A DNA stretch of 60,142 nucleotides. It comes from Nemertoderma westbladi. Its lineage: Eukaryota > Animalia > Xenacoelomorpha. Location of the stretch: the NCBI GenBank assembly GCA_032718475.1, contig JAUCBJ010000180.1:1-60142 (forward strand). Reading direction: 5' to 3'. A program made the position numbers and the translations under genes. Under the pieces are notes generated by a model. The model was not told the origin of the DNA, did no database searches, and saw only the letters and a list, made by a program, of their open reading frames with translations. Positions 8,934-56,192 of this stretch are shown piece after piece (position 1 is the stretch's first letter; each line of letters opens with the position of its first letter).

Positions 8934-8992
8934 CTGCATAAAGTATAATTATTGTTAAGTTGTCTTTCCACTGAGTTGACATCCAATATTAC

Positions 8993-9325: not shown

Positions 9326-9420
9326 AAATATAACTGACATCTAAAACTTTCTTATAGTTAATTATTATTGCAAAAAAAAGGTATATAAAAGGTAAAAAAA
9401 GGATTATTGCAATAATAAAC

Positions 9421-9514
9421 GGGGCAATAGGCGGGACAATAGGCGGGAAAATAGGCGGGATAATAGGCGGGACAATAGGCGGGACAATAGGCGGGACAAT
9501 AGGCGGGACAATAG
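9421..9514. repeat. 12-bp tandem repeat (GGCGGGACAATA)n; related copies at ~12030-12113
   Basis: About 7 units seen directly; gives the PPIV repeat of ORF 9324..9590. Confidence 0.85.
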
Positions 9515-9591
9515 GATGGTTAAAATTACAAAAATAAGTTTTTTGCAATATTTCTGAGCCGAAGTATGAAGCTGAAATACAATATCTCACT

Positions 9592-13990: not shown

Positions 13991-14317
13991 TGTTAGGGGG
14001 ATTATTGAATCTAAAAGATAAAATAAAGTAAATTGCCGCTAAATTGCTAAAGTACTAATAAGTATTACAGCGCTAGTAATTGTTATTAGATAGTCAGCGT
14101 AGCCAGTAATTATTTACTAACTGTTTTTATTTATTCGGTTTGTATAAATGATCAATATAATATTTAATTTATTTTTAATGTTCCAGTAAAACAAAGTGTT
14201 CTAGAACCTTAATTGATAACGAAATTGTTCTTGGAGATTAAAAAGTAGCGACAACTAGTTAGTTTAAATAATTTATGTTTTTTTAAATAAAATGTTCTAG
14301 AACAAAATAAATATGTT

Positions 14318-26829: not shown

Positions 26830-26998
26830 TGGACCGGGATATTCCATGAACATTTATTGAACATTTATTTTTATACATATATAAATATATTAACTCTAGG
26901 CCAAATTAATCAAGACTATGCAATATTAAATTTGGGTTTTTTATATGGGAAATGACCTACGCAAACTCGATCTACCGATAGACCTTACGAAGGTCATT

Positions 26999-27020
26999 GG
27001 GGGGGGGGGGGGGGGGGGGG
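26999..27020 (+). promoter_or_regulatory. Polypurine tract of element 1
   Basis: 22 G followed by AC and then the LTR-initial TG at 27023. Confidence 0.85.
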
Positions 27021-27022
27021 AC

Positions 27023-31846: not shown

Positions 31847-32950
31847 TGAATTTAAGAATTTAAGAATAAAATTACGTATTATATGTCAAAAAACGTAGGG
31901 CCTAGCACATTTTTTTCAATATTCTCTCGACCCTTTATTAATTTCGCTGGCGCTCGGCAAATAAAATAACTCGAGTATAGTGGATAAGTTGTAACTTTTA
32001 TTTTCCTAAGTACTAAATACTTAATTATACTAATAAAATGTATTTAATGTGAACAATACCATACCGTCTGTGGGTAATGGATACATGACTTGTCCACCAA
32101 AAATACTATTCAATTAATTCAGCCAATTTAGTTATATATCCAATTTGAAGTTTATGCAATATGTTACCCCTAGCGGCCAACATAAGGAAAATATAGAAAT
32201 TTTAGAAAGTAAACCATTTAAATAAGTTTGACATCAATTTTTATTAACAAATTCGGGTGATTTTTGATGATCGAATCTTACGGCGATTGGATGAATTAAG
32301 CCTAGAGCTATACAACACACATGACACAGTAATGTTTTACCTTGGAGCTTGGGTGTTATTATTCCCTTGGGCAAAATAACACCTATGCAATTAATGAATT
32401 AAAGTGAAACACACCGAAAATTTTCCAACTCCCTTGGGAAAAATAAATATAAACACCCCCAAAACTTTCCAAGCCCCATTTTGTACTCTCTTCCCCCAAA
32501 CAATGCCCTTTTAGAATCTGTAAATAGTTGTTAAGGGGCAAAAATAATCGAAATGCATACCATAATAAATGTGTAACAACTTACTTATTCCCCAGAAGTT
32601 AGTTAAACAACCCGAGGGCGAAGCCCGAGGGTGTTCCTGCCCAAGGGTTAAGCATAGAGCAATATAAATTTGTTATTAATAGAAATTGTTTCCAACTTTA
32701 TAACTACATGTAAAAATGGAAGCAGGACAATTCGGTCCCGGACAATTCGATCCCATTTATTTTGTGTTATGGGACCGAATTGTCCGGGACCAAATTAAAT
32801 TGGTACTATAATGGTGAATATTCTCAACCTTAGTATATATTTTTCTACGGTAACTAGTGTTTTTTTACTATAGTTATTCATTTAAAAATTCACTTTTTAT
32901 CCGCAAAATGCGGACATAAAAGACTTTTTTGTCCCCATATGCGGACAAAC

Positions 32951-35680
32951 CCGGATGCGGATACACCCCTTCCACAGATCCCCCCATACCTCCCACCCCG
33001 TCTCCTACGCCATCCACAGATCCCCCCATACTTCCCGCACCGCCTCCCACGCCATCCACAGATCCCCCCATACCTCCCACTCCGTCTCCTACACCAGCCA
33101 CAGACCCTCCTGTACTTCCCACTCCGTCTCCTACACCCTCCAAAGATCCTCCTGTATTTCCCACTCCGTCTCCTACACCATCCACAGATTCCCCCCATAC
33201 TTCCGACTCCGCCTCCCACACCCTCCAAAGATCCTCCTGTATTTCCCACTCCGTCTCCTACACCCTCCACAGATCCCCCCATACCTCCCACTCCGTCTCC
33301 TACACCATCCACAGATCCCCCCATCCTTCCGACTCCGCCTCCCACACCCTCCTAAGATCCTCCTGTACTTCCCACTCCGTCTCCCACACCCTCCACAGAT
33401 CCCCCCATACCTCCCACTCCGTCTCCCACACCCTCCAAAGATCCTCCTGTACTTCCCACTCCGTCTCCCACACCGTCCACAGATCCTCCTGTACTTCCCA
33501 CTCCGTCTCCCACACCGTCCACAGATCCTCCTGTACTTTCTCTCCGTCTCCCACACCCTCCAAAGATCCTCCTGTACTTCCCACTCCGTCTACTACACCC
33601 TCCACAGATCCCCCCATACCTCCCACTCCGTCTCCTACACCATCCACAGATCCCCCCATACTTCCGACTCCGACTCCCACACCCTCCAAAGATCCTCCTG
33701 TACTTCCCACTCCGTCTCCCACACCCTCCACAGATCCCCCATACCTCCCACTCCGTCTCCCACACCCTCCAAAGATCCTCCTGTACTTCCCACTCCGTAT
33801 CCCACACCGTCCACAGATCCTCCTGTACTTCCCATTCCGTCTCCCACACCGTCCACAGATCCTCCTGTACTTTCTCTCCGTCTCCCACACCCTCCAAAGA
33901 TCCTCCTGTACTTCCCACTCCGTCTACTACACCCTCAACAGATCCTCCTGTACTTCCCACTCCGTCTCCTACACCCTCCACAGATCCCCTCATACCTCCC
34001 ACTCCGTCTCCTACACCATCCACAGATACTCATGTACTTCCGACTCCGCCTCCCACACCCTCCAAAGATCCTCCTGTACTTCCCACTCCGTCTCCTACAC
34101 CCTCCACAGATCCCCCCATACCTCCCACTCCGTCTCCTACACCATCCACAGATCCTCATGTACTTCCGACTCCGCCTCCCACACCCTCCAAAAATCCTCC
34201 TGTACTTCCCACTCCGTCTCCTACACCCTCCACAGATACCCCATACCTCCCACTCCCTCTCCTACACCATCCACAGATCCTCATGTACTTCCGTCTCCAC
34301 CTCCCACACCCTCCAAAGATCCTCCTGTACTTCCGACTCCGCCTCCCACACCCTCCAAATATCCTCCTGTACTTCCCACTCCGTCTCCCACACCGTCCAC
34401 AGATCCTCCTGTACTTCCCACTCCGTCTCCTACACTCTCCACAGATCCCCCCATACCTCCCACTCCGTCTCCTACACCATCCACAGATCCCCCCATACTT
34501 CCCACACCGCCTCTTACACCCTCCAAAGATCCTCATGTACTTCCCACTCCGTCTCCCATACCGACCACAGATCCCCCATACTTCCCACTTCGCCTCCCAC
34601 ACCCTCCACAGATCTCCCATACCTCCCACTCCGCCTCGTACACCATCCACAGATCCCCCCCATACTTCCGACTCCGCCTCCCACACCCTCCAAAGATCAT
34701 CCTGTACTTCCCACTCCGTCTCCCACACCCTCCACAGATCCCCCCATACCTCCCACTCCGTCTCCCACACCCTCCAAAGATCCTCCTGTATTTCCCATTC
34801 CGTCTCCCACACCGTCCACAGAACATCCTGTACTTCCCACTCCGTCTCCCACACCGTCCACAGATCCTCCTGTACTTTTCACTCCGTCTCCCACACCCTC
34901 CAAAGATCCTCCTGTACTTCCCACTCCGTCTCCCACACCCTCCACAGATCCCCCCATACCTCCCACTCCGTCTCCCACACCCTCCAAAGATCCTCCTGTA
35001 TTTCCCATTCCGTCTCCCACACCGTCCACAGAACATCCTGTACTTCCCACTTCGCCTCCCACACCCTCCACAGATCCTCATGTACTTCCGACTCCTCCTC
35101 CCACACCCACCAAAGATCCTCCTGTACTTCCCACTCCGTCTCCCACGACCGTCCACAGATCCTCCCATACCTCCCACTCCGTCTCCTACACCATCCACAG
35201 ATCCCACCATACCTCCCACTCCGTCTCCCTCACCCTCCAAAGATCCTCCTGTACTTTTCACTCCGTCTCCCACACTCTCCACAGATCCCCCCATACCTCC
35301 CACTCCGTCTCCCACACCCTCCAAAGATCCTCCTGTACTTCCCATTCCGTCTCCCACACCGTCCACAGATCCTCCTGTACTTCCCACTCCGTCTCCCACA
35401 CCGTCCACAGATCCTCCTGTACTTTCCACTCCGTCTCTCACACCCTCCAAAGATCCTCCTGTACTTCCCACTCCTTCTCCTACACCCTCCACAGATCCCC
35501 CCATACCTCCCACTCCGTCTCCCACACCCTCCAAAGATCCTCCTGTACTTCCCATTCCGTTTCCCACACCGTCCGCAGATCCGCACACCGTCTCCTACAC
35601 CCTCCACAGATCCCCCCATACTTCCCACTCCGTCTCCTACACCATCCACAGATCCTCCTGTACTTTCCACTCCGTCTCCC
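32951..35680. repeat. 42-bp C-rich minisatellite, ~65 copies
   Basis: Unit ACAGATCCTCCTGTACTTCCCACTCCGTCTCCCACACCGTCC ([14 protein letters not shown]); frequent 1-2 bp indels shift the frame. Confidence 0.95.
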
Positions 35681-36711
35681 ACGGAAGCAGGACAATTCGG
35701 TCCTGGACAATTCGGTCCGGACAATTCGGTCCCGGGCAATTCGCTCCTGGACAATTCGGTTCTAAAACAAATTCGGTCCCATATTTATTTAGTGTTTGGG
35801 TTCAGATAGTTTCAGATATGATTTTTTCCAGTTTAATTTATGGTATACCTGCAGTATTCCAACACCGATCACCTTAATTAATATTGCTTTAATTATTTTA
35901 TTAAACTATTTACATACTTGTGTGTAAAGTAGCACTTTATTACATACTTGTGTGTAAATTAGCACTTTACAGTGTGATGATCCGAGTGGCTTTGTTACAC
36001 GAACGAACGTTAGTGAGTGAGTGAAAATAAAGCCACGAGGATCAGTACACTGTAAAGTACTTTGCAACAAGTATGTATGTAATTCTATTCCAAAATTGTA
36101 ACATTACGAAATGATTGTATATATATTATAAGTGATAGAAACTGCACAAATTAAATTAGTTGCTGTATAAATAATTGTAAAATTGATATAAATTATTAAT
36201 AAATAAGTTAGCTTATATTTAGGGTGGCGTTTGGAGCCATGTTATAATAATATAGCTGGGCCCTACTGGTTATTAATAGCTATACCCCGCCTACCGGTAG
36301 GTAATGCTCCCTTAGTGGGCAATACTTAACGCCGTCATGGGTTACCACGTAAACAATAACACCAAATGCAATAATAAATGTACAGGCCAATACAATGCTG
36401 TAATGTCCTCTAAAGTTGTAAAGTGCTAAATAACAACTCGCTGTTAATAACGGTGTTGAGTAATGTTACAATTTCAGAATGAAATCTATTACCTCGCACA
36501 TCTAAAATACAAGTAACATTATAAAATATAAAACAAAATTACAACTTACATTAGGTTGATTTACAGTTGTTAAGTTCTGGAACAGAAGGTTATTAGATGG
36601 AACAACACGGAACGTTGGTAACTGCGGGTAAATGTTTATAAACACTTTGTATCCGATCTTGTGTATCGTTGAACAATCTAAATATAATATAATAATATTA
36701 CAAATTGATTG

Positions 36712-36793
36712 TATCTCTCCTTGGACTCTGTCCTCGAGCAGAGAATCCGAGCCATAGCGCGGTGTGCGAGGATAGAAGGTTCTCCTTCACCCC
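36712..36793 (+). mobile_element. CRE-like (restriction-like endonuclease) non-LTR retrotransposon fragment, left half
   Basis: Translates HSAVCEDRRFSFTP up to the ACCCC TSD and continues in frame at 55785. Confidence 0.7.
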
Positions 36794-39084
36794 TGTTAAA
36801 CTAGCGCGTCACCTATACTAACAGCAGAACTGTTGAACAGACAAATACCCGTATACTTCTCTGCCAACCTAATGAGTTCTCGCCTAACCAATAAGACACA
36901 AAGACTGCTCTACTGTTAAGTAAAAGGGATCAGGAGCGTGCTATTGCTAAAATGTAGGGCTGCTAAATACAAAACCGCTACTTACCGTTGGATGGCGCTA
37001 ATCTGCCGTCCGCTAATATATTTTACTAAATTTACACGGCTCCTGCAAAATCGCTTGTTCCTTTCTCTACCGATCGCTCGACAGAGAGCTAACTCTTCGA
37101 ATCTATAAGCCACGCGGGAATAACCAAAACAATAAACCCGAGTCGGCTCCCTAAGCTTACTTAAGATGAGTGCGAGAGGCTTTGCACTCAGAGTATTCTT
37201 ACGCCTAATTTTTACTACTGTTGAAATACGCTAATGCCTACGTCTTTTCTAATCGCGAATACTAGGGGTTCCCTAACGGAATGTGTGAATGCGAGAATAT
37301 TTAAAATAATCAAAATGGTACAGAACACTGTCTTTACGTGCGTAACACCGCTCTGGGTCTAAACTCGCCTGCAGCTGGCTTTAGGCCAGTAAACTACTAA
37401 TGCGTTTGCGTACTGACTACTGCAATCTAGCTTATTGCCCGCTAATTCAAATAACCGCTCAGCGTGAATAGTTTACGGTACTCTAAATTATTACCTTAGC
37501 TACTCTCCGCTATGCTGCGTACTAATTCTTAATTTTACTAATTAATTACAGTCACAAATATGTAACAGCGTACTAATTACTAAGAGTTCCAGAATGTGTA
37601 ATTCTAATTTATTACACAACAGGTTTCGCTAGTAATAGCCTAAAATGCCGTATTACTTTGACCTAATCAGTAATTATTTGTTGTAAACAAGAAATAGAAA
37701 TCAATCAATGAGAAAAAGGGCGCCTACCTAAGCATTCGTAATCATAGGCACACTTCAGTAACACACCAATCAGCATCAGCAATCACAGATCACAATAGTA
37801 CAACTTGCAATTATACAATCCGCAATTATATAATTCGCAACGTAATAGTTTGCAATTGACTGTAGGGTATGCAGGCCTCTCCCGGGTACATCTAGGCTTC
37901 CTAACTAACCCAATTCCTGCCCCCCTAATACTAAAATAGAGACAAAACCTGGATCATCAGCCCCCTAATTACCGTACCAGCGAGCGGTCTGTACACTACA
38001 ATGCGAATTGCCCGACCGCAACGGTGACCCCCCGCCAGCGTTACCCGCCTTTGAATCCTCCGCACTCCCTTCGTCGCTAACCCCCCGATGCGCCCACCGC
38101 CTACCGGCACCTTAGCCCTCCATTAAAATGAATAGATACCGTAGCGGCGCATGCAAATCACAACAGTCTGACAGTTTCAGAAATCCCGTAGGATTATTGC
38201 GTCGAAATGAATTACATAGAACCATTAACGAAAGAGGTAGAAATCATAGTTCCAGTTGTAATTAGCAGTAATCATTGGGATTGATTGAGAAACACAATTG
38301 AGAATAGTAGCACTAACGAATCATTTCAAGAAAATTGATCAAAAGGGTAGAAATGCAGAAAATACGCACAAATTGTACTCCTAAACTTAACACAGAATAA
38401 TGAGATTGTGGTGGTGTAAGGTTGAGATTGTTGTAAGATAGGGCTCTACCGGCAAACAGCCAATTTATAGGTGATCCGAGTGGGGTGATGCAATAGCTCT
38501 CTCATTGGCTCTCCAATCCGCGCTTATCATTAGACCAACCTGGAAGCAGTTAGTCCAATAAGAAAGCCGGATTGTAGCCCTATTGCCCCCCAAACCCACA
38601 AAACGTCACCATACAAGGTAATTTTGCCGATGCTTAATTTAGCGGTACTAATAACATGATGTACAAACATTAATTTAGCGCAATTATAGAAAATCAAACC
38701 CGTGATAGCTAGCCCATCAAGGCTAATAACAGCAAGCCCGAAATCCAGGGTCCAACTGAACTTGCTACCCTGGAACTATCTACTTATATCATATTACAAA
38801 ATTACATAGGTAGGGCTACATACTATACAAAATGGATGAATTCAAATATATGGGCGTTTCAATTTCCTTATCTAAATGTCACTGTGCTATTATGTCTTAT
38901 CTAAATAATTATATTGCATAACGGACTAATATTGCGTACAGTATAACGGGCTAATATATTATACTGTATAATGGACCAATATTTTATACTGTATAATGGC
39001 TAATAATGTGTACTGCATAATAATTAATATCGTGTATACAGTACAACGGCTAACAATGTGGATACAGCGCCATATACCGTAACA
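36794..39084 (-). repeat. 3' LTR of element 2 (2291 bp)
   Basis: In element orientation TGTTA...TAACA; about 99% identical by eye to 53495..55784; preceded by a short purine-rich GGAGCGG (weak PPT). Confidence 0.92.
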
Positions 39085-40940
39085 CCGCTCCAAGGGAAAT
39101 TATGCAATGTTTCCCTCCAACTGTAGAAGAGTATAGGGTGATGTATACAAACAAAATAAAATTCTTTCAAATAATCTAAATACTTGATACTATAAATTCT
39201 ACTATTTACAAAATATTGCCATAGATATTGCATAATGAATTGCATACAAATTAAATTTACAAAATAATATCTCTCTCACTGTTTAACGATTATTACATAC
39301 AAATTAAATTTACAAAATATTGTTTCTCGTTCGTTCTTACATAATGATTACTACATACAAGATCAAATATAAAAAATTTTGCTAGGGTAAGTGAAAGGAG
39401 TAAGCCAAACCCGCAGGTTTGTCTCCCCAATCACTTCCTTCGCCTCTCTCATAATATAACGCTTATGTCCTTCTGGGCTCCTCCCCGAGGCGCACCCACG
39501 AGGCGGACGCTTTTCCACAACCCCTGGGGCCAGTCCGACTGATGTTATTATTAGACCGGGCCGGGGGATGGCCCGATGCTTCCCGGGTTCAATTTTCAAT
39601 TCCCCGATCACACCAGCACAGCTCGTCGAACGTGTAGCCAGATGGGCGGCTACTGTCAACTTACTGTGGCCTGACTGTACATTGAGCCAACTCAGAGAGT
39701 CAACCGGCAGGTGGACCAGTCGATAGCGATTGAGCACCAAGGTCGCCCTTGGGCCTAACCGACGGTCTTGTCCCATGTGGGCTTGTGCTACCCAACATGG
39801 AATTTTGACTCGTTTTCACCTGCCTCGCCGGCAGTATTGAAAAACAATACTGTCTGTAGCTCAAAAGCTACTGAACAAGTAACCACTTACCAGTCACTGT
39901 ACACGTGTACTCAACAGATGTTCACAATATCAAGTACACAAATTGGACACATACCATGCACACACAGAGGACATAATCGGTAAAGAAAAAATCGGGGTCA
40001 AAATCGGGAAAGACAAAATCGAGAGGGAATAGTTGTATCGACTAGAGAGAACATTAGAGTCGAGAGTACCTTATTTTGCCGTCAGGGCAAAATAACTTTG
40101 TGTGCACAAAGGATGCTGGGGCGCAGTAAAATATGGTCCTACTAATACCAGTGGCGACTGAGCCAACTGGCAAGGTTTCCCACACTCACTCGCAGTGGCC
40201 ATACACACAATCACGTGTACTCACGTACCCACAGCAACAGAAAACTCAAAGGCCCAAACAAATCCCAAAAACCAATCAGCTGAACATGGAGACAATAACA
40301 TATAGTATCAAAAAAACGGAACAGTTGATGGCCAAAGGAACCCATACGAGCCCCAAGTAAACTGTCACTGATCGCCCACATACAAACCACAGTTCACACC
40401 ACATGAACCACAAATCACGCCATGCCACCACCCCTACTGTGTACAGGACTGGCAGTACGGCAACATGCCGACTAGACGGTACCATGGCACCATGGCAATT
40501 CATGGTTCGCTAGACACGAGGGCCTTCAGTGACTCCCTTGCACTATATCGTCAATTTAACGTGCCCCCAGACCCTCACGAGTCCGCCGCCGCCTGTTTTG
40601 AACACCCTTATAGAGACCTCACCTCTTTAGGTATTCAAAACGATATGACTAGTGTATATGAGTCTAGTTGAATATTTCCAAATGCTACAATATACATCAG
40701 AGCGACGATGATGTACATATCTAGAGTCTGTCGCCCCGTGCTATAAATGCATTATCGACCCGCTCCTGGGTTCTTTGGGCTCGCTACCCTCTTTCGCCCT
40801 CTTCCCAGATACACTAATCGTCCTCTGGTCGATTCTGTTGACGGCGTCCGTGAGGCGTCACTCCCCGGAACCGGCGACGATTTTCCCTGAGCCCCGACAG
40901 ATTCCCGGCTGGTACTTCTACCTCGGCCTCGTCCCGATTG

Positions 40941-43900
40941 TCATGCTCCTGTGGTCGCTTCCGCCAATTCTTCCTTCTGCAGTTGCACCCTTGCCTTCTC
41001 TGACGCTCCCTGCGCCTTGCATTGCAACCTTTGTGCCTCTATAATGGAGTGGTAGTGGTCGTCCTTGACCTGACGCTTGTCTTGGACCTCTCCTCCTGGT
41101 TCTCTCCGCGAGCCTTGAGCTCCAGCAGCTGTCGCTGTGGTCGCTGCGATTCTCTGCTCCTGTATCCTCTCAGCGGTCAATGACCCCACTGGTACATGAG
41201 TCAACAAAAACTCGTTGCGGTATTGTATAGCCGCCATCCTCCAATCCCCTCGCGCGCGTACCACCTTTCTAGTTTCCGAAAACAGACCTTTCGTAATCCG
41301 GTCGCAAATAGCAACGAAGTTCCAAGTATACTTGTTGTCCATATTCAACTGTCTGAAGTATTCTCGAACTACAATAACTCCAGTGTTTTGTGGAAGGTCT
41401 TGAGCGGTCAAGATGAGCTCCTGATATTGTGGCAAAGACTGTAAATACGGCTCATACGCGCGGTGAGATGGGTCTACTGCCCAGAATCCGTATCCCGCCT
41501 TAAATGGTAACTAACGCATCTGCGCTTGGATGTGGTAGTCGGCCACACCCTCCCACTTATCTAGCATCTCCCGAAGTAGGTTAGCGCTGTGGTTTTGGAA
41601 GGAATCATCTCGCAGCTGACATCTCGCGCTGCGATGTCCCTTTACCCCACAGTATCCGCATTGAGAAATGAAGATGGTGCACGTGTGAAACGAATGGTCG
41701 GTCTCATTGCACCAACGGCAGACCTTATGCGCCGCCTCTACTACCGCGTCGCACGATTTTTGATTGAGCCTTGTGCTGCCGCACAACTTACACCTACGCG
41801 CTTGTGGAAACCAGGCCCTCTCATATATGAGGTCTCCAATCGGTTTTGCACTTCCTTCTTTCCCAATGTCTAATACGGTTGTCGATCCGGAACAAAGTAA
41901 ACATCCTCGCCCTTGTCCTCTATCTCCAATATTTCCTCTCGTGTTCATTTCGGATATGTCTTCTCCACCGGAAGATCTACTCCGAACACCTCTACTAACG
42001 TCTCCGGCCAACCCTCCTTAACGGGTCTATCAGCCTCCGAGTGGAAGGGAGTACCAAACCCGCGGGTTTGATTCCCGAACCACTTCTCCAAGGCCTCTGG
42101 CGTCGGATACTCCATCGACGGTCGGTCTCCCAAATCTCCGATGTTCTGTCAATATACTCCTTCGAATATCGCTAATCCTCTCCTAACCATTGACGTATTC
42201 TCTAACGATTGGTTGAAGAACGGGGTTAAGAAATGCTTCATCACGTCGGATTGGATTCCCCCTTTCGAGCGAACGTATTGATCTCCTCCGAATACCAATG
42301 GATGACGCTTCAAAACTCGCGCAACAATATCCGCTAATAAACAAGTTACCGTGTTCGACTCAAGCACCAAATAATATTGTAGCGACGCATGGGGTGGCGC
42401 GCAAATGTTCCAATACACTAACGCTTGCCGCTTGAAGTGGGATTTGAACTCCGCTCCCGGTGGCGTGTTGTATTCACCATACGCCTCCTCGTACTTCTTC
42501 TGCGTCTTTAACTTAAAGTCCCAATTATACAACAAATGTGCTATGAAGCCCATACCAGTCTTGGCAGAGTTGGGATACTCCCTATAAATTCCAATATCCT
42601 GTGCCCATAGCAACAATAGATTGGTGTCGACAAACGGTCTCGGCAATCTATCTTCCAAATCAGTCATGGCGTTGAAGTCACTCTCCAAATCGCTCTGGAC
42701 TCCCGATCCCACCTTGACATAATCTTGGTTGAGAATAGCCTCTCTAACCTTCTTGGGTAGCATCCTGGCGTTGATACGCTCCGCTCCGTGCATACCTCCT
42801 CGCCTGCATACCTCCAAAATCTGTTCCCTAGGATCCTTCCCCTTCCGATATTGTGTCGTTATGATGGGCTCCGGTCTCTCTCGATCCGCCCTCACGCGCA
42901 TAAACTCATGAGTCACACCATCGGCTACGCGAATTTGAATGCACTTGCTAGTCAAACATTCTTGATGGGACCCTCCTTCATTGTCATAGAACATCACCCT
43001 CCAATCCTGCAGTGATTCCTCCGTTTTCCTCCACTGACGCTGAATCTCGTCTGATGGGGTCCACATGCGCTCAATAGCCTTGTGGTCATCATATCGGGTG
43101 TAAGAACCCTTCCTCCTCAGCCACGTCTGGTCTACCTCCTCGTCGTCTGGGAATGTAGCCACCGCGACCCATACTTTGATGTACTTGTCTAACCATCCAA
43201 ACAATTTGCTCTCCTTCCCCGGAGCTCCAATCTTGTCCAATGTGTCATAGTCCGTGATCTGCATCGGGACATCACGCAAGAACTTCGTGCATAAAACTTC
43301 CCGTAGACAGTCAACGTTCCAATGATCTGACATCCTCACCATCGGCAAGAATCTAATCGCTTCTCGCGACTCCGGATTATCTACCAATATCGCAGGTTCG
43401 TTGCCGTCGGAATAATACACCGGTCGGGGTTGAGATACGGCCTGTGGAACAAATCCGGTCACTCTCCTCGTCTCCTCCTGATGTCTATCCGTGGTCTTAT
43501 TATACTCCGCTATCCGCTTCTCGAATAACTCTTTCGCCTTCGCCGCTCGCTCCTCCTGCCGCAACGCGTCTATGTCGTCCTGATGCTCAGGCGTGAGGCT
43601 TCTCACTCGGTGAGGCGAAGTAAACGTAGTCCAGGGACTCGAGAGCTCCAAACCCGTGGGTTTGGTACCCGAGTCCCGTGCCGCTTCACGCCGCGCCTCT
43701 AGGTCCTTATAGGCTCGGTATAGCGAAATGGCTGCTGCCGTCTCTATCAAACTGGGTGTCGAACAGGGTTTAATCTCCGTATACGGATCCAATGTCGTAA
43801 CGGTCGGCGTAATGGGTCTTGGAGGTCGCTTTCCGCTGAAGTCGATACTGATCATCGGGTTGCTCATTGGGTAACCTCCCTCGTTGTATCTAAGGAACTG

Positions 43901-44437
43901 GTGAGCTTGACATCACGTTAATATCGGTTCTGGATGTTGCTCGTCCAGTCGGTCGGGAATCGACACGTCTTGTTTGTTCATGCATTCACCACACTTGTAA
44001 AACAGCTTGTACATGCTGAAGATCTTCGGCGTCTCTTGATCCTCGCCTCTAGTCCTCCGGTACAGATGCATTCCGTCGAACTGGTCTCGGACTGCAGGTA
44101 GAGGTTCTTCGTGTCGTAAATACATGTTCATATGGTACAGCCACGCGATCTCCTCATCCGGGTCTGCACTAATGTCACATACGTCTAAAGCGAAGTCGTA
44201 GGGATACCGAGTGCGATACTCTCTCCGCAAAACTTCCATACGGTCCCCCAACGTTCTCATTCTTTCCCTCCTTAGTTCCTTATCATACGCGGGTTTATAC
44301 TTTCCATTTAGCTCCATCACCGACCTCCCATGGTAGTAAACGTTCGAATCTTTACATCCCGGTCGCGCAAATGGTTACTCCGCCTCCTCTCTAGCAGTAA
44401 ATCCTCTCCGCGGTTGCGCTCTAATTTCCTTCTCCAT
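40941..44437 (-). pseudogene. Accessory ORF of element 2: DEDDy exonuclease plus zinc knuckles, broken into fragments
   Basis: ORF pieces 43913-44320, 42149-43867, 41945-42133, 41511-42011, 40941-41435. Motifs FYDNEG; LPKKVREAILNQDYVKVGSGVQSD; FVDTN; GMGFIA..WDFK; YLVLE; CKLCGS..C, CRWCNETDHSFHTC, CGYCGVKGHRSARC. Confidence 0.8.
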
Positions 44438-45192: not shown

Positions 45193-48100
45193 CTAATTTT
45201 TATTTGAGGCAGGAGACAAATTATAATCTCCTGTCTCGATGCTTGTCTCTTCTAATAACACGATATCTTGGACCGGTCGGTCCAAGGTGTGTAAACCATT
45301 AGTTTTACACTTCTTTGGGTGCGGACACTTGCACCTAATTTTCACAGTGACTGTGCGCACTATGTTTTGCACATCTGGGTGTATATGCAAGATCACTCCC
45401 GTCTCCCAATATTTTCTCTTGACAATCGGTTCGGTTATCAATACGTAATCTCCCCTTTGGAGACTCCGAACCGTTTTGTACCACTTTGTTCTGGTAGATA
45501 TGGTGGGAAGATAGTATTCCCGCCAATATTCCCAGAATGTGTATGCGACTAATTGAGTCATTTTCCAGCTTTTACGACTATATAGGTCGGCACTAATGGG
45601 TTCTGATGCCGGCACAAGAAATGCTGGACTCTGCATTAGCAAATGATTCGGCGTTAATGCAACACCGTCTGGTAACATAGCTATCGGCCTCGAGTTTAGG
45701 GTATGCTAGATTTCGATGAAAGCTGTGACCAGCTCGTCGTCGGTAAGTTGTTTGTTCACAGGCAACGTTTTAGCAATAGCCTGCTTTACAGAGCGAACTA
45801 AACGCTCCCAACTTCCTCCTCTCCAAGGACTTTCTGGAGTATTAAATCTCCATTCTATTCTTTGCGGCAAAAGTGCTGCAGAGATTTCTCTATTCTGCGC
45901 CGCCCTATGAGCCGCGTTTAACTCGCTGTTCCCCCCGACAAAGTTTGTACCCTTATCGGAGTAAAACGCTTTTACTAGTCCTCTCCTGGCCATAAATCTC
46001 TTTAAGGCCAGGAGCAGAGATTTGGTCGACATGTCTGCCACACGCTCGATATGTATGGCTCTACTAGCCATGCATGTCAGTAGCAGACCCCATCGCTTGT
46101 GGATCAGCCGTCCACTCTTTGCCTCAATCGGACCAAAACAATCCACCCCTGTGTTCGTAAAAGGTGGGTCATATGCCTGCACTCTCGCTTCCGGGAGTTC
46201 AGCCATCTCCTGTTCCAATACTCTGGCGTTCACCCTCTTGCAAACCAGACAGGCGTCGTACATAGTGCCTACTGCCCTGCTTGGCTGCAATAGAATGAAT
46301 CGCTGTCTCGCCGTTGACAAACAGTGTAATTTTCCCGCGTGATGCAACCTCTTGTGTATATCCCATAGAATCGCTCTTTGCAATTCTATTGGGTGACTAG
46401 GGATTATCACTGGGAACCTAAACTGTGAGTTTATGTCGACAGTCTGGATTCTCGATCTATGACAAATTAAACCCTTATGGATTAATGGACTCCATTTTCT
46501 AAAGGGTTTATAGAGAACTGGTCATTGAGCCGATAATAGATAGAATTCTTTTGGGAAGGCACACATTTGATAATGTTTCAAATGCTTTAATTCCACTTGA
46601 TCAATCTCATCCTCTGTCAGAGGTTGTTTCAATTTTTGAATTCGCTCAATATTGGCGCTCGTTCGTTCTCCTAAATGTTCCGAATGTTTTATACAAAGGT
46701 ACGAAATGTATCGGCTTAACCACGCAGTTCTTTTACAAATTGTCAGCCAAGAGGCAGACGAATTTAGTAATTTGTCATAAATACTACATGGCTCTAATGC
46801 CAGCGACGGTTGTCCGCTAACTAATGGAAGTTTTGAATCCAAACCTGCAGGTTTTGAAACCAACGGCTCCATTGCGTCGGTCATTTTCTGTCCGTCACTT
46901 ACCAACTGTGACTCTGGTTTAGTCTGTAAGGGTGGTTTTATGTCATAACTTACCCTTCCTGACCTAGTAGTCACGTAAGTCTGTTGGTCTGACAGGTGTC
47001 CAGGCCGCTCCAATGACTCTTCAGGCCGCTCCAATGACTTAAGTTTTGCTTTAGACTTTGACTTAGAGACTTTCTCCACTTTGACTTCTGCATCTTCAGG
47101 CATCGGATTGGTCACTATCTTTAGTCGCTCTGGCCAATGTTCCTGTGTCCTCGTTAGAAAATCAGGTCCATGCAACCAAAACTCCTGCAACTCTTCCTGA
47201 CAGAATTCCGCCGGCATTGCACCTCTCGAAGTTATGTCGGCCGGGTTCAACACTCCCGGACAATGTCTCCATTGTTCCTTCGTCGTAAAGTCGACGATCT
47301 GAGCGCGTCTGTTGGCCACGAATGTCTTTAGTGCAATATTGTCGGCTGCAATGTATACTAACACCAAGGATGCGTCCGTCCAATAGAATAAGGTCAATGT
47401 CGTGTCTAACTCCTCTATTATCTGCTTACTTACCTCGACTGAAACTACAGCCGCCTGTAACTCTGCACGAGGGACAGTCATATATTTGACCAGCATTGTC
47501 TTGGATCTAGAAGTCACAAAGGCCGTCTCAAACCTATCTTGACTTACCTCTCGGCGAAGGTAGGCTACCATACCAAAGCCGGTGTCACTTGCGTCACTGA
47601 ATAAATGGAGTTCGAGATCAGCTGGAAATACCAGCTGATTCGGAAAGTAGGAGCGGGGTACATCTATGTTTTTCAATAGATGCAACTCGGCTTCCCACTC
47701 TCTCCACTGCTTTGCATGTATAGGAGATATTGGTTCGTCCCACTCTAAGTCGGACAACCAAATTTTCCTCATGCACGCTCGTGCCTGTAATATTACCGGA
47801 CTGATAAAGTTCATCGGGTCAAATAGTCTACTCAAAGTCGATAAGCAAATTCTCTTAGTCAAAACTTTGTCTGGGCTACTGGGCTCAAATCTAACTCTTA
47901 CCTGGAACTTATCTGAGTTCGGGTTCCAAGCGAGTCCCAGTACTCGCGCCATGGGAATGGGTTCCACCCCCAATTCAATGTCTCTGCTCCCGCGATCTTT
48001 TACCGGGAATGACTCTAATAGGGCCTCCGAATTAGTGGTGAACTTGGTCAGAGGGAAACCCCCTGTAGCCAAGCACTCCTGCTGGCCGTGAGCCACTTCT

Positions 48101-51100
48101 ATGGCTTGTTCCGCTGTGTCCTTGGACACCAATCCGTCATCCATATAGAAGTTTCTCAAGATGGACTCGATTACTTCTACTGGATACTTACCAATCTGGG
48201 CTGTTGCCGTTTTCTTTAAAACGAACAGCATGCCATTCGGACTATGGCGGGCGCCAAATATGCTAACGTACATTTGGTATGTAACCACTGGGCCGGATAA
48301 GTCTTCATTCTCATACCAGAGAAATCGAAGGCTATCCTGGTCTGCCTTACAGGCTCTTACCTGGTGGAACATCGCCTCGATGTCACAAGTAAATGCGAAT
48401 CGCCGCTGTCTAAAACGTAACAGTATACCTATCAAATAATTATTCAGGTTGGGACCATCCATCAACTCTGAATTCAGGGACATACCTCTATAGACTGCTG
48501 CGCAGTCATTGACTACTCGGACTTTGTCAGGTTTGTCAGGTCAGGTTAGTCACATAGTGGTGTGGAAGGTAATATGTCTGGTCTGTCACTAAGTCAGGGT
48601 CCTCTACCTTCCCAGCAAATCCCTTGGCGAAATAGTTGTTGATCTGGGCGCAATACTTCTCCCTAATGTCTGGATTCCTCAACAACCGAGCCCTTACTCG
48701 GTTTAATCTTTTCAAGGCTAAGCTGTAGTTGTTCTCCAACTTAGGAGGTTGTCGACGCCACAACATTCCAACTTCAAATGTCCAGTCGGTAGCAGACGTA
48801 TGGTATCTTCCATCATCTCCAGCGACCGTTTCTCATCAGTAGACATGGTTAGGTCATATCCACCGGGTTCCATTGCGTCCCTATCCAGCCATTCGACGGT
48901 TCTGGCTCCTGTCTCGAGGTCCTGGCGTATCAATTCCTTCTGTAGCTCCTTCTCACTGTATTGGAAGATGTCTAGGTCTCGATATTTAGCCACTTGACCC
49001 TCCACTATGTCGGTATAAGTCAAAACGTTAGTCAAATAGGTAGCGTGGGCCGCTGAACCAGACCCACGGGTCTGATAACAGTAGTCCTCGGGTTCACTAT
49101 CTGTCCGGTCATTATGAAGTGGTTCCGACAACCTAACATTATCGGGAATCAACTCCTCGTCCGACTCGCTAACGTCACTATAATGGTCAATACAGGTTCT
49201 CCTAAACTCGTCTATGTCTGGTGGTTCTACTAACGGTGGTTCAGTTATAGGCTGTAATTCGTCGTATCTATCTATTGGCTTGTTGCCACCTGTAAACTCA
49301 TAAGACATGGGTACTCGTGTATACCAACCTAATATAGTCCTATGGGCATGTGGTCCATTGACATGCGGCTCAGCTGGTCTCGTTTCCCATATTTGGTGTG
49401 CGATCAGCTGTTCTGCACCAATTAACATAGAAACATTCCTATAACCTACCTGGTGTCTTGGTACTCTGAGTTTGTCAAAATACTCCTGTGCTATGGGACT
49501 CATCGGCGGCACCTTACCTAACTGCCTGCCAAACCCCTTCCTAGCTAGACACTTAAATCCGTCCAATGGCAAAGCTCTCTGTTCTTGTCGAGTATGTTGG
49601 TCTCTCGGCAGTAGGGAATCTAGTTCTACAGATATCCTGTGTCCCTTGAGGTCACCTACCTCGTGCATAGACTTCAACTCTATTTGGATTTCCTCGGCGT
49701 CCTGGAAGCTAGAAACGGCTCTCGCCACTTCCTCGTCGATATATGATAATGTGGACGCAGTGTCCAACATCACATATATTCGCTTCGATCCCTTATTGCC
49801 AGTAAGTTTCACCGGAATCACGCTAAATATTTCCAACGTGGCCGATGATAAATACGTCCGCGCGCTGGTCGATGAACTGTAGCAAATACTGGTCTGAAGC
49901 AAATAGTTGAACTTCTCGTTGGGAGTAAAGGTGCTGTTGGTCAGCTGTTCATCGACATCGGTTTTAAACGTCCTCCAGTGCTTATGGTTGCCTATAAACT
50001 TCTGGGGTTGTTGCGTCGGCAGTCCTTGCCTGCAGCAAACTTACCTATGTCCCTAAGGGTTGCGTCATTCCGGGTTAACAAATGGTTTAGTTCCGCAGGG
50101 TTGTTAAGTCTGGTCCTTTCCCGGGGATTAAGACTTACCTGCTCCGCGTCCGTCCTTCTTTCCTTATAGTTTCGGGACTTCTGACGTCTCATGTCTTCCT
50201 CTTCATCGCTTGACTTGGTGTCAGTCCTTAGTGAAACCTTGGCAGGTTTGCGTGCCGAGTTCCTGACCCAAGCTTCCTGAATAAACCTTTCTGCCGAATT
50301 TTCGAAATTGGGATTATGGATATTCGGGACAGGCATCCTTACCTGAGGTCTATGTATAGTTGCCTCTGATATACGTACTCGTTGACTAGGTTGGACTTTA
50401 TCTAACTCCGGCCTGCTAGGATTTGAATTACTTCTTACCTGGGTTGCTTCCTTTAACTGTAGGTTACTAAGCATGTCCGTTATAGGTTGGATGTGCGGTG
50501 ATATAGCTTGCGCTAAACTGGCACTTAACTCACCCCTCGTAATAAATTCCTGGCTAGGGTTCTGTTGTATAGTCGGCTCTATCTGAGTAATCCGCTGTCT
50601 CTCATATGATCCCTCTTCCGGTTTAACCCAGAAGTTCTCCGTCGAACTGGGTCAGCGCTCCGTCCGCGTATTCCAAACCCGCGGGTTCGGTTCGCCAAAT
50701 ACTCGGCCCGTCGGAGTTTCTCCTCTAAACTCTCCGTTGTCACGTTCGGTATGTAGTGGTGCGGTGTTAGGATGACGTGGATCCTGCGCGATGGGTGAAG
50801 CACTAATACCAACTGGTGTGCGATATGTAGAGAACGGTTTAGCGATTCGTGTACTCGTAATAGCAGGACCGGGTATAGGAATTCTGGTCGTCGTCGACTC
50901 GCGTATAGTCGGAGTTCTCGCTTCCTGTTCGGCCTTCTGCAGTGCGAACAGTTCTCGCAACTCAGTACCTACACTCGCCCCACATTCTTCGATCATTTGC
51001 ATCCCCTTCTCGGCGATTTCATTCGCCTTCCTGGTCCGTTCTTCGCTCTCTAAATTTAATCTCGCACTTTCTAACTGCGCCAGTTTATGTTCTTCTTCTT

Positions 51101-52424
51101 CCCTCGCTCGTCTTGCTGCGCTCTCTTCTTCTACACGCGCCTTCTCTTCATACAACGCCCATCGCTCCTTCTCGATCTCGAGTTCGCGTTCTTTGCACTC
51201 GCGTTCGAGTTGGAATTCACGTTTCTTCTGTTCGCGTTCGAGTTGGAGTTTGCGTTCTTTCGCTTTCCGTTCGCGTTCAAGTTGGAGTTCGCGTTCCTTC
51301 TGTTCGCGTTCTTTCTGTTCGCGTTCGAGTTGGAGTTCGCGTTCAAGTTGGAGTTCGCGTTCCTTCTGTTCACGTTCCGCTTGCTCATGCTTACCTTTCT
51401 CTTCCAACTCTCGCAACTTTGTGTCTAACTTAGGTGTGCGCTCCCGTTATCGTTCGGCTTCTTTTCGTGCTTCCGATGCACGCAAAACTTCCGCCTGCTG
51501 TTCGTCTAGTCGGCGTCTTCTCTCCTCCGCCGAGTTGTGAGAAACAAGGGATCTAGCACATATAACTTTCCCTCGCTCGTGACTAACCTGGGAATCGCCA
51601 CTGTCTCTGGATGCGTCGTCGGATGGAGTCAACGTCCTCTGTTGGATGTTCTTCGTCGTCGGTAGCACCTGGCCTGGTACCACCACTCCGCTCTGCATCA
51701 GCCAGCTAGTAACTTCCCTCTGATAACGGCGCTCTTTTTTGTCTTGGATCTCTTCCCGCTCCACTAAGTCTCTCAACTCTGCGTCACTCACCTGATTCGC
51801 CTGCGCTTATGATGCCCATAGCAACCAGTTCTCCGTCCTAACTCGTCGAAATCGCTCCGATAACGCGCGGTGCTCCAACAGGGCTGCCAAAACCCTATCG
51901 TAAACCCTCATCGCCACGTCGCTCGACTGGGACTCCACTGCTCTCTTTGCTAGGACTGCAAGCTCCTCCGTCTGCTTGAATAATGCCTTATATCCCTTTC
52001 TAATCTCTACTAACCCTTCCCTTCCGATGTTTGCTGAGTCGGCTAACATCTTCCTTACCTTGTCCGTCGTCCGAGTTATATGTCCGGCATGCGCGCGAAG
52101 TTTCTTCTTTATCGCGATGTCAAGTTCTCTCTCGCTTACCTGACTCACACTTGGTGGACTTGAAGGATTATTTCGGGAACTACGGGTACTCCTTACAGCC
52201 GTTGGGACCACGGTACATACCATACCCACAGGTCTGGAAACCGGGCTCCGGGCTCTCACTTCTGCTACACTACCCTCCTTATCACAAACCTCTGTCCGGG
52301 CTGCTGTGCAGTCCTTCCTTACAGTAGTGGTAGGGGATCCTAATACTATTACCTGAGGTTGTTGTTCTTCCTCACTAGTTACTGTCTCGTCCTCCTGTTC
52401 ACTTACGTCAGCGTCGGCACTCAT
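45193..52424 (-). pseudogene. BEL/Pao gag-pol of element 2, disrupted and apparently missing capsid and nucleocapsid
   Basis: Coiled-coil gag N-terminus; protease MLDTAS; RT YYLPHHYV and FYMDD; RNase H FSDAS, TVPRAELQAA, NPADITSRG; integrase HHAG..CLVC, GVDCFGP, SDKGTNF, GSWERLV; many stops and frameshifts. Confidence 0.93.
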
Positions 52425-53494
52425 AGTCTAAATAATATTTGCCTTCCGGCAAAATATCTCGCAAAAGTTCGAGATATATATATATAATTTAATCGAAATA
52501 CGATTAAATTATTTGACAAATAATTACTTGGTCCAAAATGTCAAAATAAATTCGCAATGCAATATTGTGAATTTAATAGGATATAGTTATAGCAAATACT
52601 AGCACAATATTTAAACAAAAATATTATTATATAGCTATTATAGCAATTAAATACCGGTATGACACAAAATAATTTCTGAATCTAATACGAATATTCAGAA
52701 TGAAATTGCCACCCAAATAATTCCAATTTTGAATATATAGCTCTAATCAACGTAATTTTAATTTCAAATATTATATGTATCCACTAGCGCGTGGCTACAT
52801 CTTCGGGTTGTGACTCTCTCTAACTCTCTCTCTAACTTGAGCGATTCAAAACCATGGCCGGCTAAACCTAACTAACCTAACTAATAAATTGAGTTCAGCT
52901 TCGCAGTTAAACAACCGGTAATTTTTTACTGCTTCCACAAACACAATGGTGCCAACAGAACAACTAACCTTGTTTGCTGTGAGATTCCACATCCGCGTCC
53001 AAAGATTCAGGCTCTTCGCTGATTGCAAACCGAACCCGCAGACCCACACGAACCCCAAACTCAGAAGTTCCGTCTTGCCATGTATCTCCAGATGGTATAA
53101 AATAACTAAGAGGTTATACCTAACATACCGGTACAAAACTCTAGATTTTTACAAATAATTTTGACCGAAACTGAATTCTCGCAAACCTAGCTAAAATTTT
53201 CAAAAAACTTACTAATTACAGTTTGCCCTAAGGCCTAAGGAACTGCTGTATTCGCAATTAGTAAAAACGCACTACCGTACATCCACCGTACGCAGTAACA
53301 GCAATCAGCCTAATGTACTACTGTACTATTGTACACGACCAGTGAATACAGTAATCTAAACTAACAGCCTGAGAATACTCTATTTACTGTATGCTACGGC
53401 CTACAGCAAACAAAACATACCCTACTGTTAAACTATAGTCTAACTCTGAATACACTCTTTACTGTTGCAAGCAACAGCAAATCACATACCCTAC

Positions 53495-55784
53495 TGTTAA
53501 ACTAGCGCGTCACCTATACTAACAGCAGAACTGTTGAACAGACAAATACCCGTATACTTCTCTGCCAACCTAATGAGTTCTCGCCTAACCAATAAGACAC
53601 AAAGACTGCTCTACTGTTAAGTAAAAGGGATCAGGAGCGTGCTATTGCTAAAATGTAGGGCTGCTAAATACAAAACCGCTACTTACTGTTGTATGGCGCT
53701 AATCTGCCGTCCGCTAATATATTTTACTAAATTTACACGGCTCCTGCAAAATCGCTTGTTCCTTTCTCTACCGATCGCTCGACAGAGAGCTAACTGTTCG
53801 AATCTATAAGCCACGCGGGAATAACCAAAACAATAAACCCGAGTCGGCTCCCTAAGCTTACTTAAGATGAGTGCGAGAGGCTTTGCACTCAGAGTATTCT
53901 TACGCCTAATTTTTACTACTGTTGAAATACGCTAATGCCTACGTCTTTTCTAATCGCGAATACTGGGGGTTCCCTAACGGAATGTGTGAATGCGAGAATA
54001 TTTAAAATAATCAAAATGGTACAGAACACTGTCTTTACGTGCGTAACACCGCTCTGGGTCTAAACTCGCCTGCAGCTGGCTTTAGGCCAGCAAACTACTA
54101 ATGCGTTTGCGTACTGACTACTGTGATCTAGCTTATTGCCCGCTAATTCAAATAACCGCTCAGCGTGAATAGTTTACGGTACTCTAAATGATTACCTTAG
54201 CTACTCTCCGCTATGCTGCATACTAATTCTTAATTTTACTAATTAATTACAGTCACAAATATGTAACAGCGTACTAATTACTAAGAGTTCCAGAATGCGT
54301 AATTCTAATTTATTACACAACAGGTTTCGCTAGTAATAGCCTAAAATGCCGTATTACTTTGACCTAATCAGTAATTATTTGTTGTAAACAAGAAATATAA
54401 ATCAATCAATGAGAAAAAGGGCGCCTACCTAAGCATTCGTAATCATAGGCACACTTCAGTAACACACCAATCAGCATCAGCAATCACAGATCACAATAGT
54501 ACAACTTGCAATTATACAATCCGCAATTATATAATTCGCAACGTAATAGTTCGCAATTGACTGTAGGGTATGCAGGCCTCTCCCGGGTACATCTAGGCTT
54601 CCTACCTAACCCAATTCCTGCCCCCTAATACTAAAATAGAGACAAAACCTGGATCATCAGCCCCCTAATTACCGTACCAGCGAGCGGTCTGTACACTACA
54701 ATGCGAATTGCCCGACCGCAACGGTGACCCCCCGCCAGCTTTACCCGCCTTTGAATCCTCCGCACTCCCTTCGTCGCTAACCCCCCGATGTGCCCACCGC
54801 CTACCGGCACCTTAGCCCTCCATTAAAATGAATAGCTACCGTAGCGGCGCATGCAAATCACAACAGTCTGACAGTTTCAGAAATCCCGTAGGATTATTGC
54901 GTCGAAATGAATTACATAGAACCATTAACGAAAGAGGTAGAAATCATAGTTCCAGTTATAATTAGCAGTAATCATTGGGATTGATTGAGAAACACAATTG
55001 AGAATAGTAGCACTAACGAATCATTTCAAGAAAATTGATCAAAAGGGTAGAAATGCAGAAAATACACACAAATTGTACTCCTAAACTTAACACAGAATAA
55101 TGAGATTGTGGTGGTGTAAGGTTGAGATTGTTGTAAGATAGGGCTCTACCGGCAAACAGCCAATTTATAGGTGATCCGAGTGGGGTGATGCAATAGCTCT
55201 CTCATTGGCTCTCCAATCTGCGCTTATCATTAGACCAACCTGGAAGCAGTTAGTCCAATAAGAAAGCCGGATTGTAGCCCTATTGCCCCCCAAACCCACA
55301 AAACGTCACCATACAAGGTAATTTTGCCGATGCTTAATTTAGCGGTACTAATAACATGATGTACAAACATTAATTTAGCGCAATTATAGAAAATCAAACC
55401 CGTGATAGCTAGCCCATCAAGGCTAATAACAGCAAGCCCGAAATCCAGGGTCCAACTGAACTTGCTACCCTGGAACTATCTACTTATATCATATTACAAA
55501 ATTACATAGGTAGGGCTACATACTATACAAAATGGATGAATTCAAATATATGGGCGTTTCAATTTCCTTATCTAAATGTCACTGCGCTATTATGTCTTAT
55601 CTAAATAATTATATTGCATAACGGACTAATATTGCGTACAGTATAACGGGCTAATATATGATACTGTATAATGGACCAATATTTTATACTGTATAATGGC
55701 TAATAATGTGTACTGCATTATAATTAATATCGTGTATACAGTACAACGGCTAACAATGTGGATACAGCGCCATACATACATACA
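53495..55784 (-). repeat. 5' LTR of element 2 (2290 bp)
   Basis: Copy of 36794..39084; the outer 10 bp differ; followed by TSD ACCCC. Confidence 0.92.
55160..55262 (-). promoter_or_regulatory. Putative LTR promoter (TATA box plus CCAAT boxes)
   Basis: CTATAAATTG on the minus strand at ~55161-55170, with several CCAAT/ATTGG motifs 35-95 bp upstream. Confidence 0.5.
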
Positions 55785-56192
55785 ACCCCCCTTGTCGGAA
55801 CCACCGATGAGGTGTGGTGCAAGGAGACTGATACCTTCATCAGCCACCTCGCTGAGACCCTTGTGGCTCGGCGGCAGGGGATGCGGGGATGTGGCCTAGC
55901 CTGCGTTCTCGGGGGAGTTCGGAGGCGGCTTCAGTTCGCGCTCCTCCGCTCCAACTCCCTCTATTTGCGTGGTGGCCGGCGTCCCTGGAGGGCGCTGGGC
56001 TTTGGGGATGGTGCGGGTCTGCGGGGGAATGACCTCGCAGACCATTATTAATTCACGGTGCACCATTTTTAATTGTATGTTAAATTTTATTGTCTTAATT
56101 GTTTTGTCCTGATTGGTGGTGGGATGCTGGTGCAGTTTTATATTTAATTTTGGTTTTATGGATTTGGGTCAACTTTATGCTGAATAAATACT
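55785..56192 (+). mobile_element. CRE-like non-LTR retrotransposon 3' end (RLE C-terminus and 3' UTR)
   Basis: TPLVGTTDEVWCKETDTFISHLAETL...VRRRLQFALLRSNSLYLRGGR matches the CRE-clade C-terminal pattern; T-rich UTR ending with AATAAA at ~56183. Confidence 0.75.

Follow-up and report, generated by a model that had tools for sequence, protein, structure and literature searches.

A BEL/Pao retrotransposon of Nemertoderma westbladi with a primer-binding site complementary to its own long terminal repeat: a candidate for self-primed reverse transcription

The window analysed here is the whole 60,142-nt stretch of Nemertoderma westbladi contig JAUCBJ010000180.1 (assembly GCA_032718475.1, positions 1 to 60,142), and the subject of this study is a BEL/Pao-lineage retrotransposon of 19 kb on its minus strand, referred to as element 2, with long terminal repeats (LTRs) of 2.29 kb and a 5-bp duplication of the target site (TSD). 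The primer-binding site (PBS) that directly follows its 5′ LTR lacks the usual tRNA signature and is instead an exact ten-base complement of a site inside the LTRs. This complementarity is real and non-random. Taken with a matched change seen among related copies and with the recurrence of the same signature in distant BEL/Pao families, it suggests that element 2 very probably primes its own reverse transcription, by one route or another.

All features of element 2 are given on the minus strand unless stated otherwise. The 5′ LTR (53495–55784; 2290 bp, TG...CA) and the 3′ LTR (36794–39084; 2291 bp) share approximately 99% identity with 29 differences. The edge of the 5′ LTR at 53495, which a first-pass annotation of the sequence had fixed by LTR comparison and the TSD, was borne out by the 3′ LTR, which ends at 36794, and by the two flanking copies of the TSD, ACCCC (36789–36793 and 55785–55789, plus strand). 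The PBS, GTAGGGTATG (PBS1, 53485–53494), adjoins this edge, and TGG is absent from the first 8 nt after the 5′ LTR. Its exact complement, the candidate self-primer CATACCCTAC, is found at 54563–54572 in the 5′ LTR (LTR nt 1213–1222) and at 37862–37871 in the 3′ LTR, as the same annotation had reported. Its account of the helix was also found to hold: this comprises 12 bp including two G-U pairs at its far end, and its unbroken part halts at the LTR edge with A opposite A. As an amendment, weak predicted pairing resumes beyond the mismatch. The complement of the PBS 10-mer arose in 4 of 5000 first-order Markov LTRs, and one of at least 10 nt, with offsets of 0–2 allowed, in 6 of 2000. Within the element itself, the LTR holds a complement of at least 10 nt to 40 of the 14,370 internal positions. 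The chance of the match seen in element 2 is placed at 0.1–0.3%.

A second exact copy of the last 10 LTR bases together with the PBS, missed in the first-pass annotation, lies 69 nt downstream (53416–53435, with PBS2 at 53416–53425), in a repeat that is otherwise 79% identical. The block immediately upstream of the primer (54573–54625) is common to copies with differing primers and may represent a TATA-less core promoter. Further upstream lies the sole strong splice-acceptor-like site before the primer (54631–54653), with its AG ending at LTR nt 1154, 58 nt before the primer, and a candidate splice donor was located at 54744. The LTR also holds a TATA-like box (55164–55169, LTR nt 616) with CCAAT/ATTGG boxes near it at LTR nt 526, 568 and 577, and its sole AATAAA (54309–54314) lies about 250 nt 3′ of the primer. 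Searches with Rfam and ARAGORN detected no ribozyme or tRNA in the element 2 LTR; over the window ARAGORN predicted no tRNA, and Rfam gave just two weak miRNA matches, both outside this LTR.

A number of other interpretations of the primer region were tried and rejected. The site, which reads ...TAC AG, could not be retained as the 3′ end of an intron because other versions of the site precede different dinucleotides. A longer primer made by splicing was also rejected for element 2, the best match being 8 nt. A resemblance of LTR nt 633–653, near the TATA-like box, to the primer region was not significant (12 of 221 control windows reached its score); one contig of run X2 carries a better-pairing stretch in this TATA-proximal region, which is a hint only. 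A further helix, joining the bases that precede the primer to the leader beyond PBS2, was discounted for its length of 6 bp.

Related copies of element 2 were sought in host contigs from four DNA runs and one run guessed to be RNA (X5), runs X1 and X2 being from one sample; the PBS and primer lay outside the coverage of the X5 contigs. One X1 contig joins the leader to the LTR end and carries a single PBS, differing from that of the window at positions 4–8. At the LTR site, among the 18 listed of 24 loose-end rows, 11 span all ten bases, and these 11 contained seven versions of the LTR site besides that of the window, all attached to one upstream block. The five letters of the variant PBS were found in three of these seven versions, one of which matches it at all ten positions. 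By a hand estimate the chance of such five-letter agreement is approximately 0.4% (4 distinct 5-mers of 1024), a figure that transition bias would raise a little. PBS position 4 also shows a G-to-A change in runs X1 and X3, which agrees with six of the seven LTR-site versions. Variability of this order in a primer site disfavours a fixed host primer and would be expected of a retained primer that is copied into the PBS during plus-strand synthesis. The first-pass annotation had put forward covariation of the PBS with its LTR complement across related families as a check on self-priming; among the related copies a matched five-letter change was seen, on separate contigs.

To place element 2 in a wider setting, RT-alignment scanning of metagenomes gave 80 loci, which formed 52 clusters at 90% identity. 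A long-spaced direct repeat was present in 36 of these loci, and the 16 (15 families) with the inner end on both copies were used; the other 20 were set aside, being L046, L055, L075 and a further 17 whose inner end could not be read at the edge of the contig. A complement of 10–15 nt to the own LTR was detected in 13 of the 15 families, as against 5 of 272 cross-pairings, two of those five being between two sister families. None of the 16 loci has TGG directly after the LTR. Both results bear on what had been named as possible refutations, namely a TGG PBS in intact relatives or a complementarity that is not conserved.

In eight of these families the full match is reached only across a GT-AG intron with strong sites, a result given by 0–1 of 100 shuffles in each case (L004/L005, L014, L017, L024, L025, L049, L063 and L072; 11–15 nt). 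The match is contiguous in L023, L040, L052 and L071 and ambiguous in L054. Among these families two choices were made post hoc: for L023 the score was taken from the 5′ LTR, its 3′ copy having given 7 nt, and the donor of L054 was added to the pattern. A blind scan in which no LTR end was fixed gave matches of at least 11 nt in 15 of 74 loci, compared with 3 of 74 shuffles. In L014 the spliced form stands at the 5′ LTR, with the intron present at the 3′ LTR. L023, which is contiguous at offset 0 as in element 2, was placed as sister to elements 1 and 2 (element 1 being a second BEL/Pao family in the window, described below) with a FastTree support of 0.94, in a tree with long branches, no outgroup and no named reference elements. 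The exact 23-nt scan of metagenome contigs gave no match, and two scans of viral contigs gave no confirmed relative.

The matches share several features. The primer ends in AC in 10 of 13 families and in AT in 2 of 13, its 5′ boundary falls at an initiator-like pyrimidine-A step in 8 of 13 (p ~0.01), and in no matching family does the helix end more than 4 nt from the LTR edge. In the 13 relatives checked the primer is followed after 11–128 nt by an A[AT]TAAA signal, compared with about 250 nt in element 2. An apparent equality of spacing on the polypurine-tract and PBS sides was true for some relatives and false for others and was dropped.

The route by which element 2 would prime itself is less certain than self-priming as such. 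The route considered somewhat better than an even bet is Tf1-like and uses the 5′ LTR copy of the primer, cut free by RNase H. RNA starting at or near the primer would fold to bring primer and PBS into pairing, and the RNase H of the reverse transcriptase (RT) would cut after the terminal AC to leave a 3′-OH. Minus-strand strong-stop DNA would then jump by means of the stretch of about 250 nt between primer and poly(A) site, and plus-strand synthesis would copy the retained primer into the PBS. By such copying, changes in the LTR site would pass to the PBS and the pair could drift freely between subfamilies. The length range of 10–15 nt would fit a primer whose 5′ end is the start of the RNA. 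In predicted folds, an RNA starting at the primer shows approximately 100% primer:PBS pairing (20% with PBS1, 80% with PBS2) and one starting at the acceptor approximately 67%. Four RNase H acidic motifs were recognised by eye in the translation of element 2. The first-pass annotation had cautioned that the TATA box lies some 600 bp upstream of the primer site, which would not simply be the Tf1 geometry; the distance is correct, and the caution does not settle the matter, as a TATA box some 30 nt ahead of the site was absent from all 13 relatives checked.

A number of observations weigh against self-priming by the Tf1-like route, or against self-priming as such. The TATA/CCAAT group at LTR nt 526–621 resembles a real promoter, 600 nt upstream, and it is right after this group that related copies diverge; for an RNA with the TATA-predicted start the predicted pairing is approximately 1%, long-range folds being unreliable. 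Flanking duplexes of the Tf1 type are not evident, the predicted folds giving weak, interrupted pairs only. Among the host copies, PBS and LTR-site variants sit on separate short contigs, and just one variant PBS is readable in full, with X1 and X2 counting as one sample. Among the metagenome families, which are only 36–41% identical in RT-RNase H, two (L032 and L080, with uncertain LTR ends) have no match, L054 carries TGG one base after the LTR edge, and a broader test of pyrimidine-purine starts was borderline (10 of 13, p ~0.05). It should also be noted that the evidence consists of contigs throughout.

Following the integrase, element 2 encodes an extra open reading frame (ORF), interrupted by a stop (42149–44374), with a DEDDy-like 3′–5′ exonuclease domain at approximately 42350–43000 and a Cys/His knuckle-like stretch after it (41511–42017). 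The ORF is common to elements 1 and 2 (27% identity over 172 amino acids), and in both the motifs D-x-E, D and Y-x-x-x-E stand at the ExoI–III positions, where the DEDDy pattern has Y-x-x-x-D. A protein atlas placed it near 3′–5′ exonucleases, close to a PF01612 cluster (score 0.91, 154 shared features). In a library of 1.8 billion proteins the element 1 version had two matches, one of which (P0121) appears to be a real homologue with the same exonuclease-plus-knuckle layout and in turn matches PF01612 weakly (E 0.2). No match for the ORF was found in the Pfam scan of window proteins or in a word-indexed protein search, nor any useful match in PDB, and a single-sequence fold model reached a pLDDT of 32. 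A tblastn search (E up to 1) of both exonuclease ORFs of the window against the 80 related loci gave no match, and no further sense ORF of at least 150 amino acids follows gag-pol in the 16 loci with both LTR ends. Since relatives bearing the signature are without the exonuclease ORF, the putative nuclease would appear unnecessary for it, and trimming by an exonuclease need not be invoked.

This bears on the route that had been suggested alongside self-priming in the first-pass annotation, in which genomic RNA would pair with the PBS through its 3′ LTR copy and the exonuclease of the element would trim back to the duplex; in element 2 the poly(A) tail and about 270 nt would have to be removed by the DEDDy-like domain. 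It would be compatible with a start at the TATA box, and an ORF with its acidic motifs in place in both window elements, scoring close to the PF01612 cluster, could supply the activity. The same signature in families lacking the ORF argues against it, as do the putative status of the nuclease with its low-confidence fold model and, in the available part of PMC5408684, the DEDDy ORFs of bdelloid LTR and Penelope-like elements, which have no demonstrated link to priming. Thus the inference of self-priming was upheld by the matched five-letter change and the distant families, while this particular path to it found no support and is judged quite unlikely. Priming in trans is a further form of self-priming, in which a short, polyadenylated transcript from within the LTR, spliced where there is an intron, would anneal to the PBS of the genomic RNA and be cut or trimmed afterwards. 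The position of the primer shortly before the A[AT]TAAA signal in the relatives is in keeping with this, and it would account for how spliced families inherit the intron whose removal makes the primer; LTR sequence is also very abundant in the DNA runs. On the other hand, it requires co-packaging and removal of a 3′ tail, the predicted cis fold is already favourable, and the difference between the two LTRs of L014 is a weak hint for the 5′ copy. Such a primer is regarded as unlikely.

Two further explanations would deny that the LTR site is a primer. The pairing could be a conserved RNA structure (for packaging, translation, or of the U5-leader type), with something else as primer. Helices between LTR and leader are common in retroelements, and the leader of element 2 forms other strong hairpins. 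A helix whose end falls at or near the LTR edge throughout the matching families, together with the 3′ AC that they share, sits poorly with this, no alternative primer site is visible, and a five-letter matched change arises more easily by templating than by five independent compensations; a purely structural role is considered improbable. The primer could also be a small RNA of the host, whether a fragment of a tRNA or another kind, or a tRNA-like RNA encoded by an element, as C. elegans Cer7 reportedly encodes for itself, the LTR match then being incidental. In favour of a host primer, an 18-nt PBS for tRNA-Arg/Gly is given for the family by the ICTV (PMC8742986), and the available parts of two papers describe a tRNA-Tyr PBS in Achilles (PMC4580426) and half-tRNA primers in copia lineages (PMC6317226). 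Against it stand the missing TGG, the ARAGORN and Rfam results above, and a PBS that varies between related copies, whereas a host primer would reset it in each cycle. This explanation is given very little credence.

A more ambitious joint reading may be formulated, and is offered as a long shot. It holds that a wide BEL/Pao lineage would have exchanged tRNA priming for a private, drifting key of primer and PBS, either ready-made or spliced; that in the giant family of element 2 an LTR transcript would supply the primer from its polyadenylated 3′ portion, which the DEDDy-like nuclease would cut back to the duplex; and that the LTR would lengthen stepwise through duplicated LTR-end/PBS units. 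With regard to the last part, the heptamer AACAGTA occurs six times in 505 nt at 53420–53925 (LTR nt 1861–2365; 0.04 expected), and is absent from LTR nt 1–1860 and from the 14.3 kb of internal sequence of element 2. These units can be read as former LTR-end/PBS junctions arranged in a ladder or, equally, as a protein-binding site. Growth of the LTR by repeated capture of downstream junctions may be proposed speculatively, on the basis of the predicted preference for PBS2 and the six units. The same heptamer is also present inside a 35-bp satellite at 9592–11837.

The gag-pol region of element 2 extends over 45193–52427, with RT-RNase H at 46522–48540 and integrase at 45193–46521, and is interrupted by stops and frame changes. 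Several in-frame stops, with each of the three kinds represented, occur in the gag-pol of both elements (16681–22968 in element 1), even though the LTRs are almost identical. About 1.9 kb with little coding capacity (39085–40940) separates the extra ORFs from the 3′ LTR, which is adjoined by a short polypurine tract of 7 nt, GGAGCGG (39085–39091), resembling that of the relatives. Six of the first ten nucleotides differ between the two LTRs (55775–55784 and 39075–39084), with identity of approximately 99% elsewhere.

Element 1 (14319–28983) is a second BEL/Pao family with 43% RT identity to element 2 and the same exonuclease-like ORF. Its second repeat extends past the likely LTR end into gag, and it is therefore a truncated tandem copy rather than a plain LTR pair. 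A 13-nt match was seen here between a candidate primer (15508–15520) and a PBS (15750–15762, both plus strand) lying 2 nt beyond a candidate LTR end (15747) that was picked after the match had been seen and that has no TSD to fix it. The LTR of element 1 (14620–15342 and 27325–28047) contains structured repeats of approximately 95–170 nt with UUCG-capped hairpins, for which no Rfam match was obtained. Elsewhere in the window are an intron-free ROCO-type ORF with CARD domains (5671–8988), a WD40 ORF (13130–14038), a 42-bp tandem array (32690–35760) between 15-bp repeats, among them an inverted repeat near 32729–32796, and a satellite (9420–12114) likewise bordered by 12-bp repeats.

Were self-priming in element 2 and its relatives true, priming free of tRNA would extend to a third superfamily of LTR elements and to many elements of invertebrates. 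Such elements might no longer depend on the supply of tRNA and might escape silencing by its fragments, and filters that rely on a tRNA-based PBS would mis-score them. A matched, fast-changing pair of primer and PBS would offer a direct genetic handle on the copying of the primer into the PBS, and the splice-built primers of the relatives would link the initiation of reverse transcription with splicing by the host. To this the present locus adds covariation of a contiguous primer within a family, a duplicated PBS and an exonuclease that appears dispensable for the signature. If the more ambitious reading, with its polyadenylated LTR transcript and exonuclease, were true, it would constitute a new way of starting reverse transcription.

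With regard to classification, the pol of element 2 carries Pao-type domains in order (PF05380, E 6e-38; PF17921; PF18701, E 2e-18), in the arrangement PR-RT-RH-IN. Its RT had 505 matches at E 1e-50 or better, and all 120 of the matches listed carry PF05380; the closest relatives are BEL/Pao proteins of 36–42% identity, from marine invertebrates or fish where named. TG...CA LTRs, a short TSD and a purine tract are all present. No Pfam match to a Gag CCHC motif was found in the three gag-region pieces scanned, the gag region being broken and one piece lying outside the scan. The ICTV describes the Belpaoviridae as primed by host tRNA through an 18-nt PBS, with LTRs of 0.2–1.2 kb and elements of 4.2–10 kb, and their replication as poorly understood (PMC8742986). 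Element 2 resembles them in its LTR termini, in its PR-RT-RH-IN order with PF05380 and PF18701 and in its closest RT relatives; it differs in lacking the 18-nt PBS for host tRNA-Arg/Gly, in its 2.29-kb LTRs and length of 19 kb, and in an exonuclease-like ORF in place of env. By its pol it belongs to the BEL/Pao lineage, and it departs from the published feature of a tRNA PBS.

No report of self-priming in BEL/Pao was found in the literature searched, which took in few subscription papers and neither supplements nor Repbase-type notes and is not proof of absence. The main text of PMC3118150 makes no mention of a primer, tRNA, PBS or exonuclease, and the available parts of PMC9094657, PMC554778, PMC8220671, PMC3601003 and PMC13524379 contain nothing on the subject. 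Outside this superfamily, the accessible portion of PMC6317226 presents the plant Tcn1 (gypsy) and TAR (copia) lineages as self-primers predicted by a criterion of at least 10 bp of LTR complement beginning 0–5 bp beyond the LTR. Element 2 is like them, as far as that text goes, in having a 10-bp complement, and unlike them in superfamily and host kingdom; the signature has thus arisen in more than one superfamily. The bdelloid LTR elements Juno and Vesta carry DEDDy ORFs with no demonstrated function, according to the part of PMC5408684 available. Likened by motif and layout description only, their ORF3 and the extra ORF of element 2 are both 3′–5′ exonuclease-like, follow pol and have an altered acidic motif; element 2 differs in being BEL/Pao and in the Cys/His knuckles that follow.

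The closest parallel in mechanism is with Tf1, Tf2 and Tj1 of the Tf1/sushi group (Ty3/gypsy chromoviruses). Tf1 is described, in the available parts of the two papers, as priming with the first 11 bases of its own RNA, cut by RNase H (PMC7175516), the primer being held in a three-duplex structure (bioRxiv 2022.12.06.519325), and the accessible part of PMC4600332 proposes that Tj1 self-primes as Tf1 does. Judged on these partial sources, the group and element 2 share a PBS next to the 5′ LTR, an own-LTR complement of approximately 10–11 nt and the lack of a tRNA site; within 0–5 nt after the 5′ LTR, where a complement of at least 10 nt is looked for, element 2 has 10 nt at offset 0. Retention of the Tf1 primer is also reported, if only in the title of a paper. 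The differences are considerable. Element 2 has a Pao-type pol, with no Pfam match to a chromodomain, its site is 1068 nt away from the LTR end, with the best TATA box at a distance of 600 nt, and its distant relatives form the match across an intron. The primer of Tf1 lies, by the same partial accounts, at the 5′ end of the RNA; for element 2 such a position is proposed, and pairs that could form the three-duplex pretzel around the PBS are weak and interrupted. On the evidence gathered here, element 2 would appear to work like Tf1, yet it is not a member of the Tf1/sushi group.

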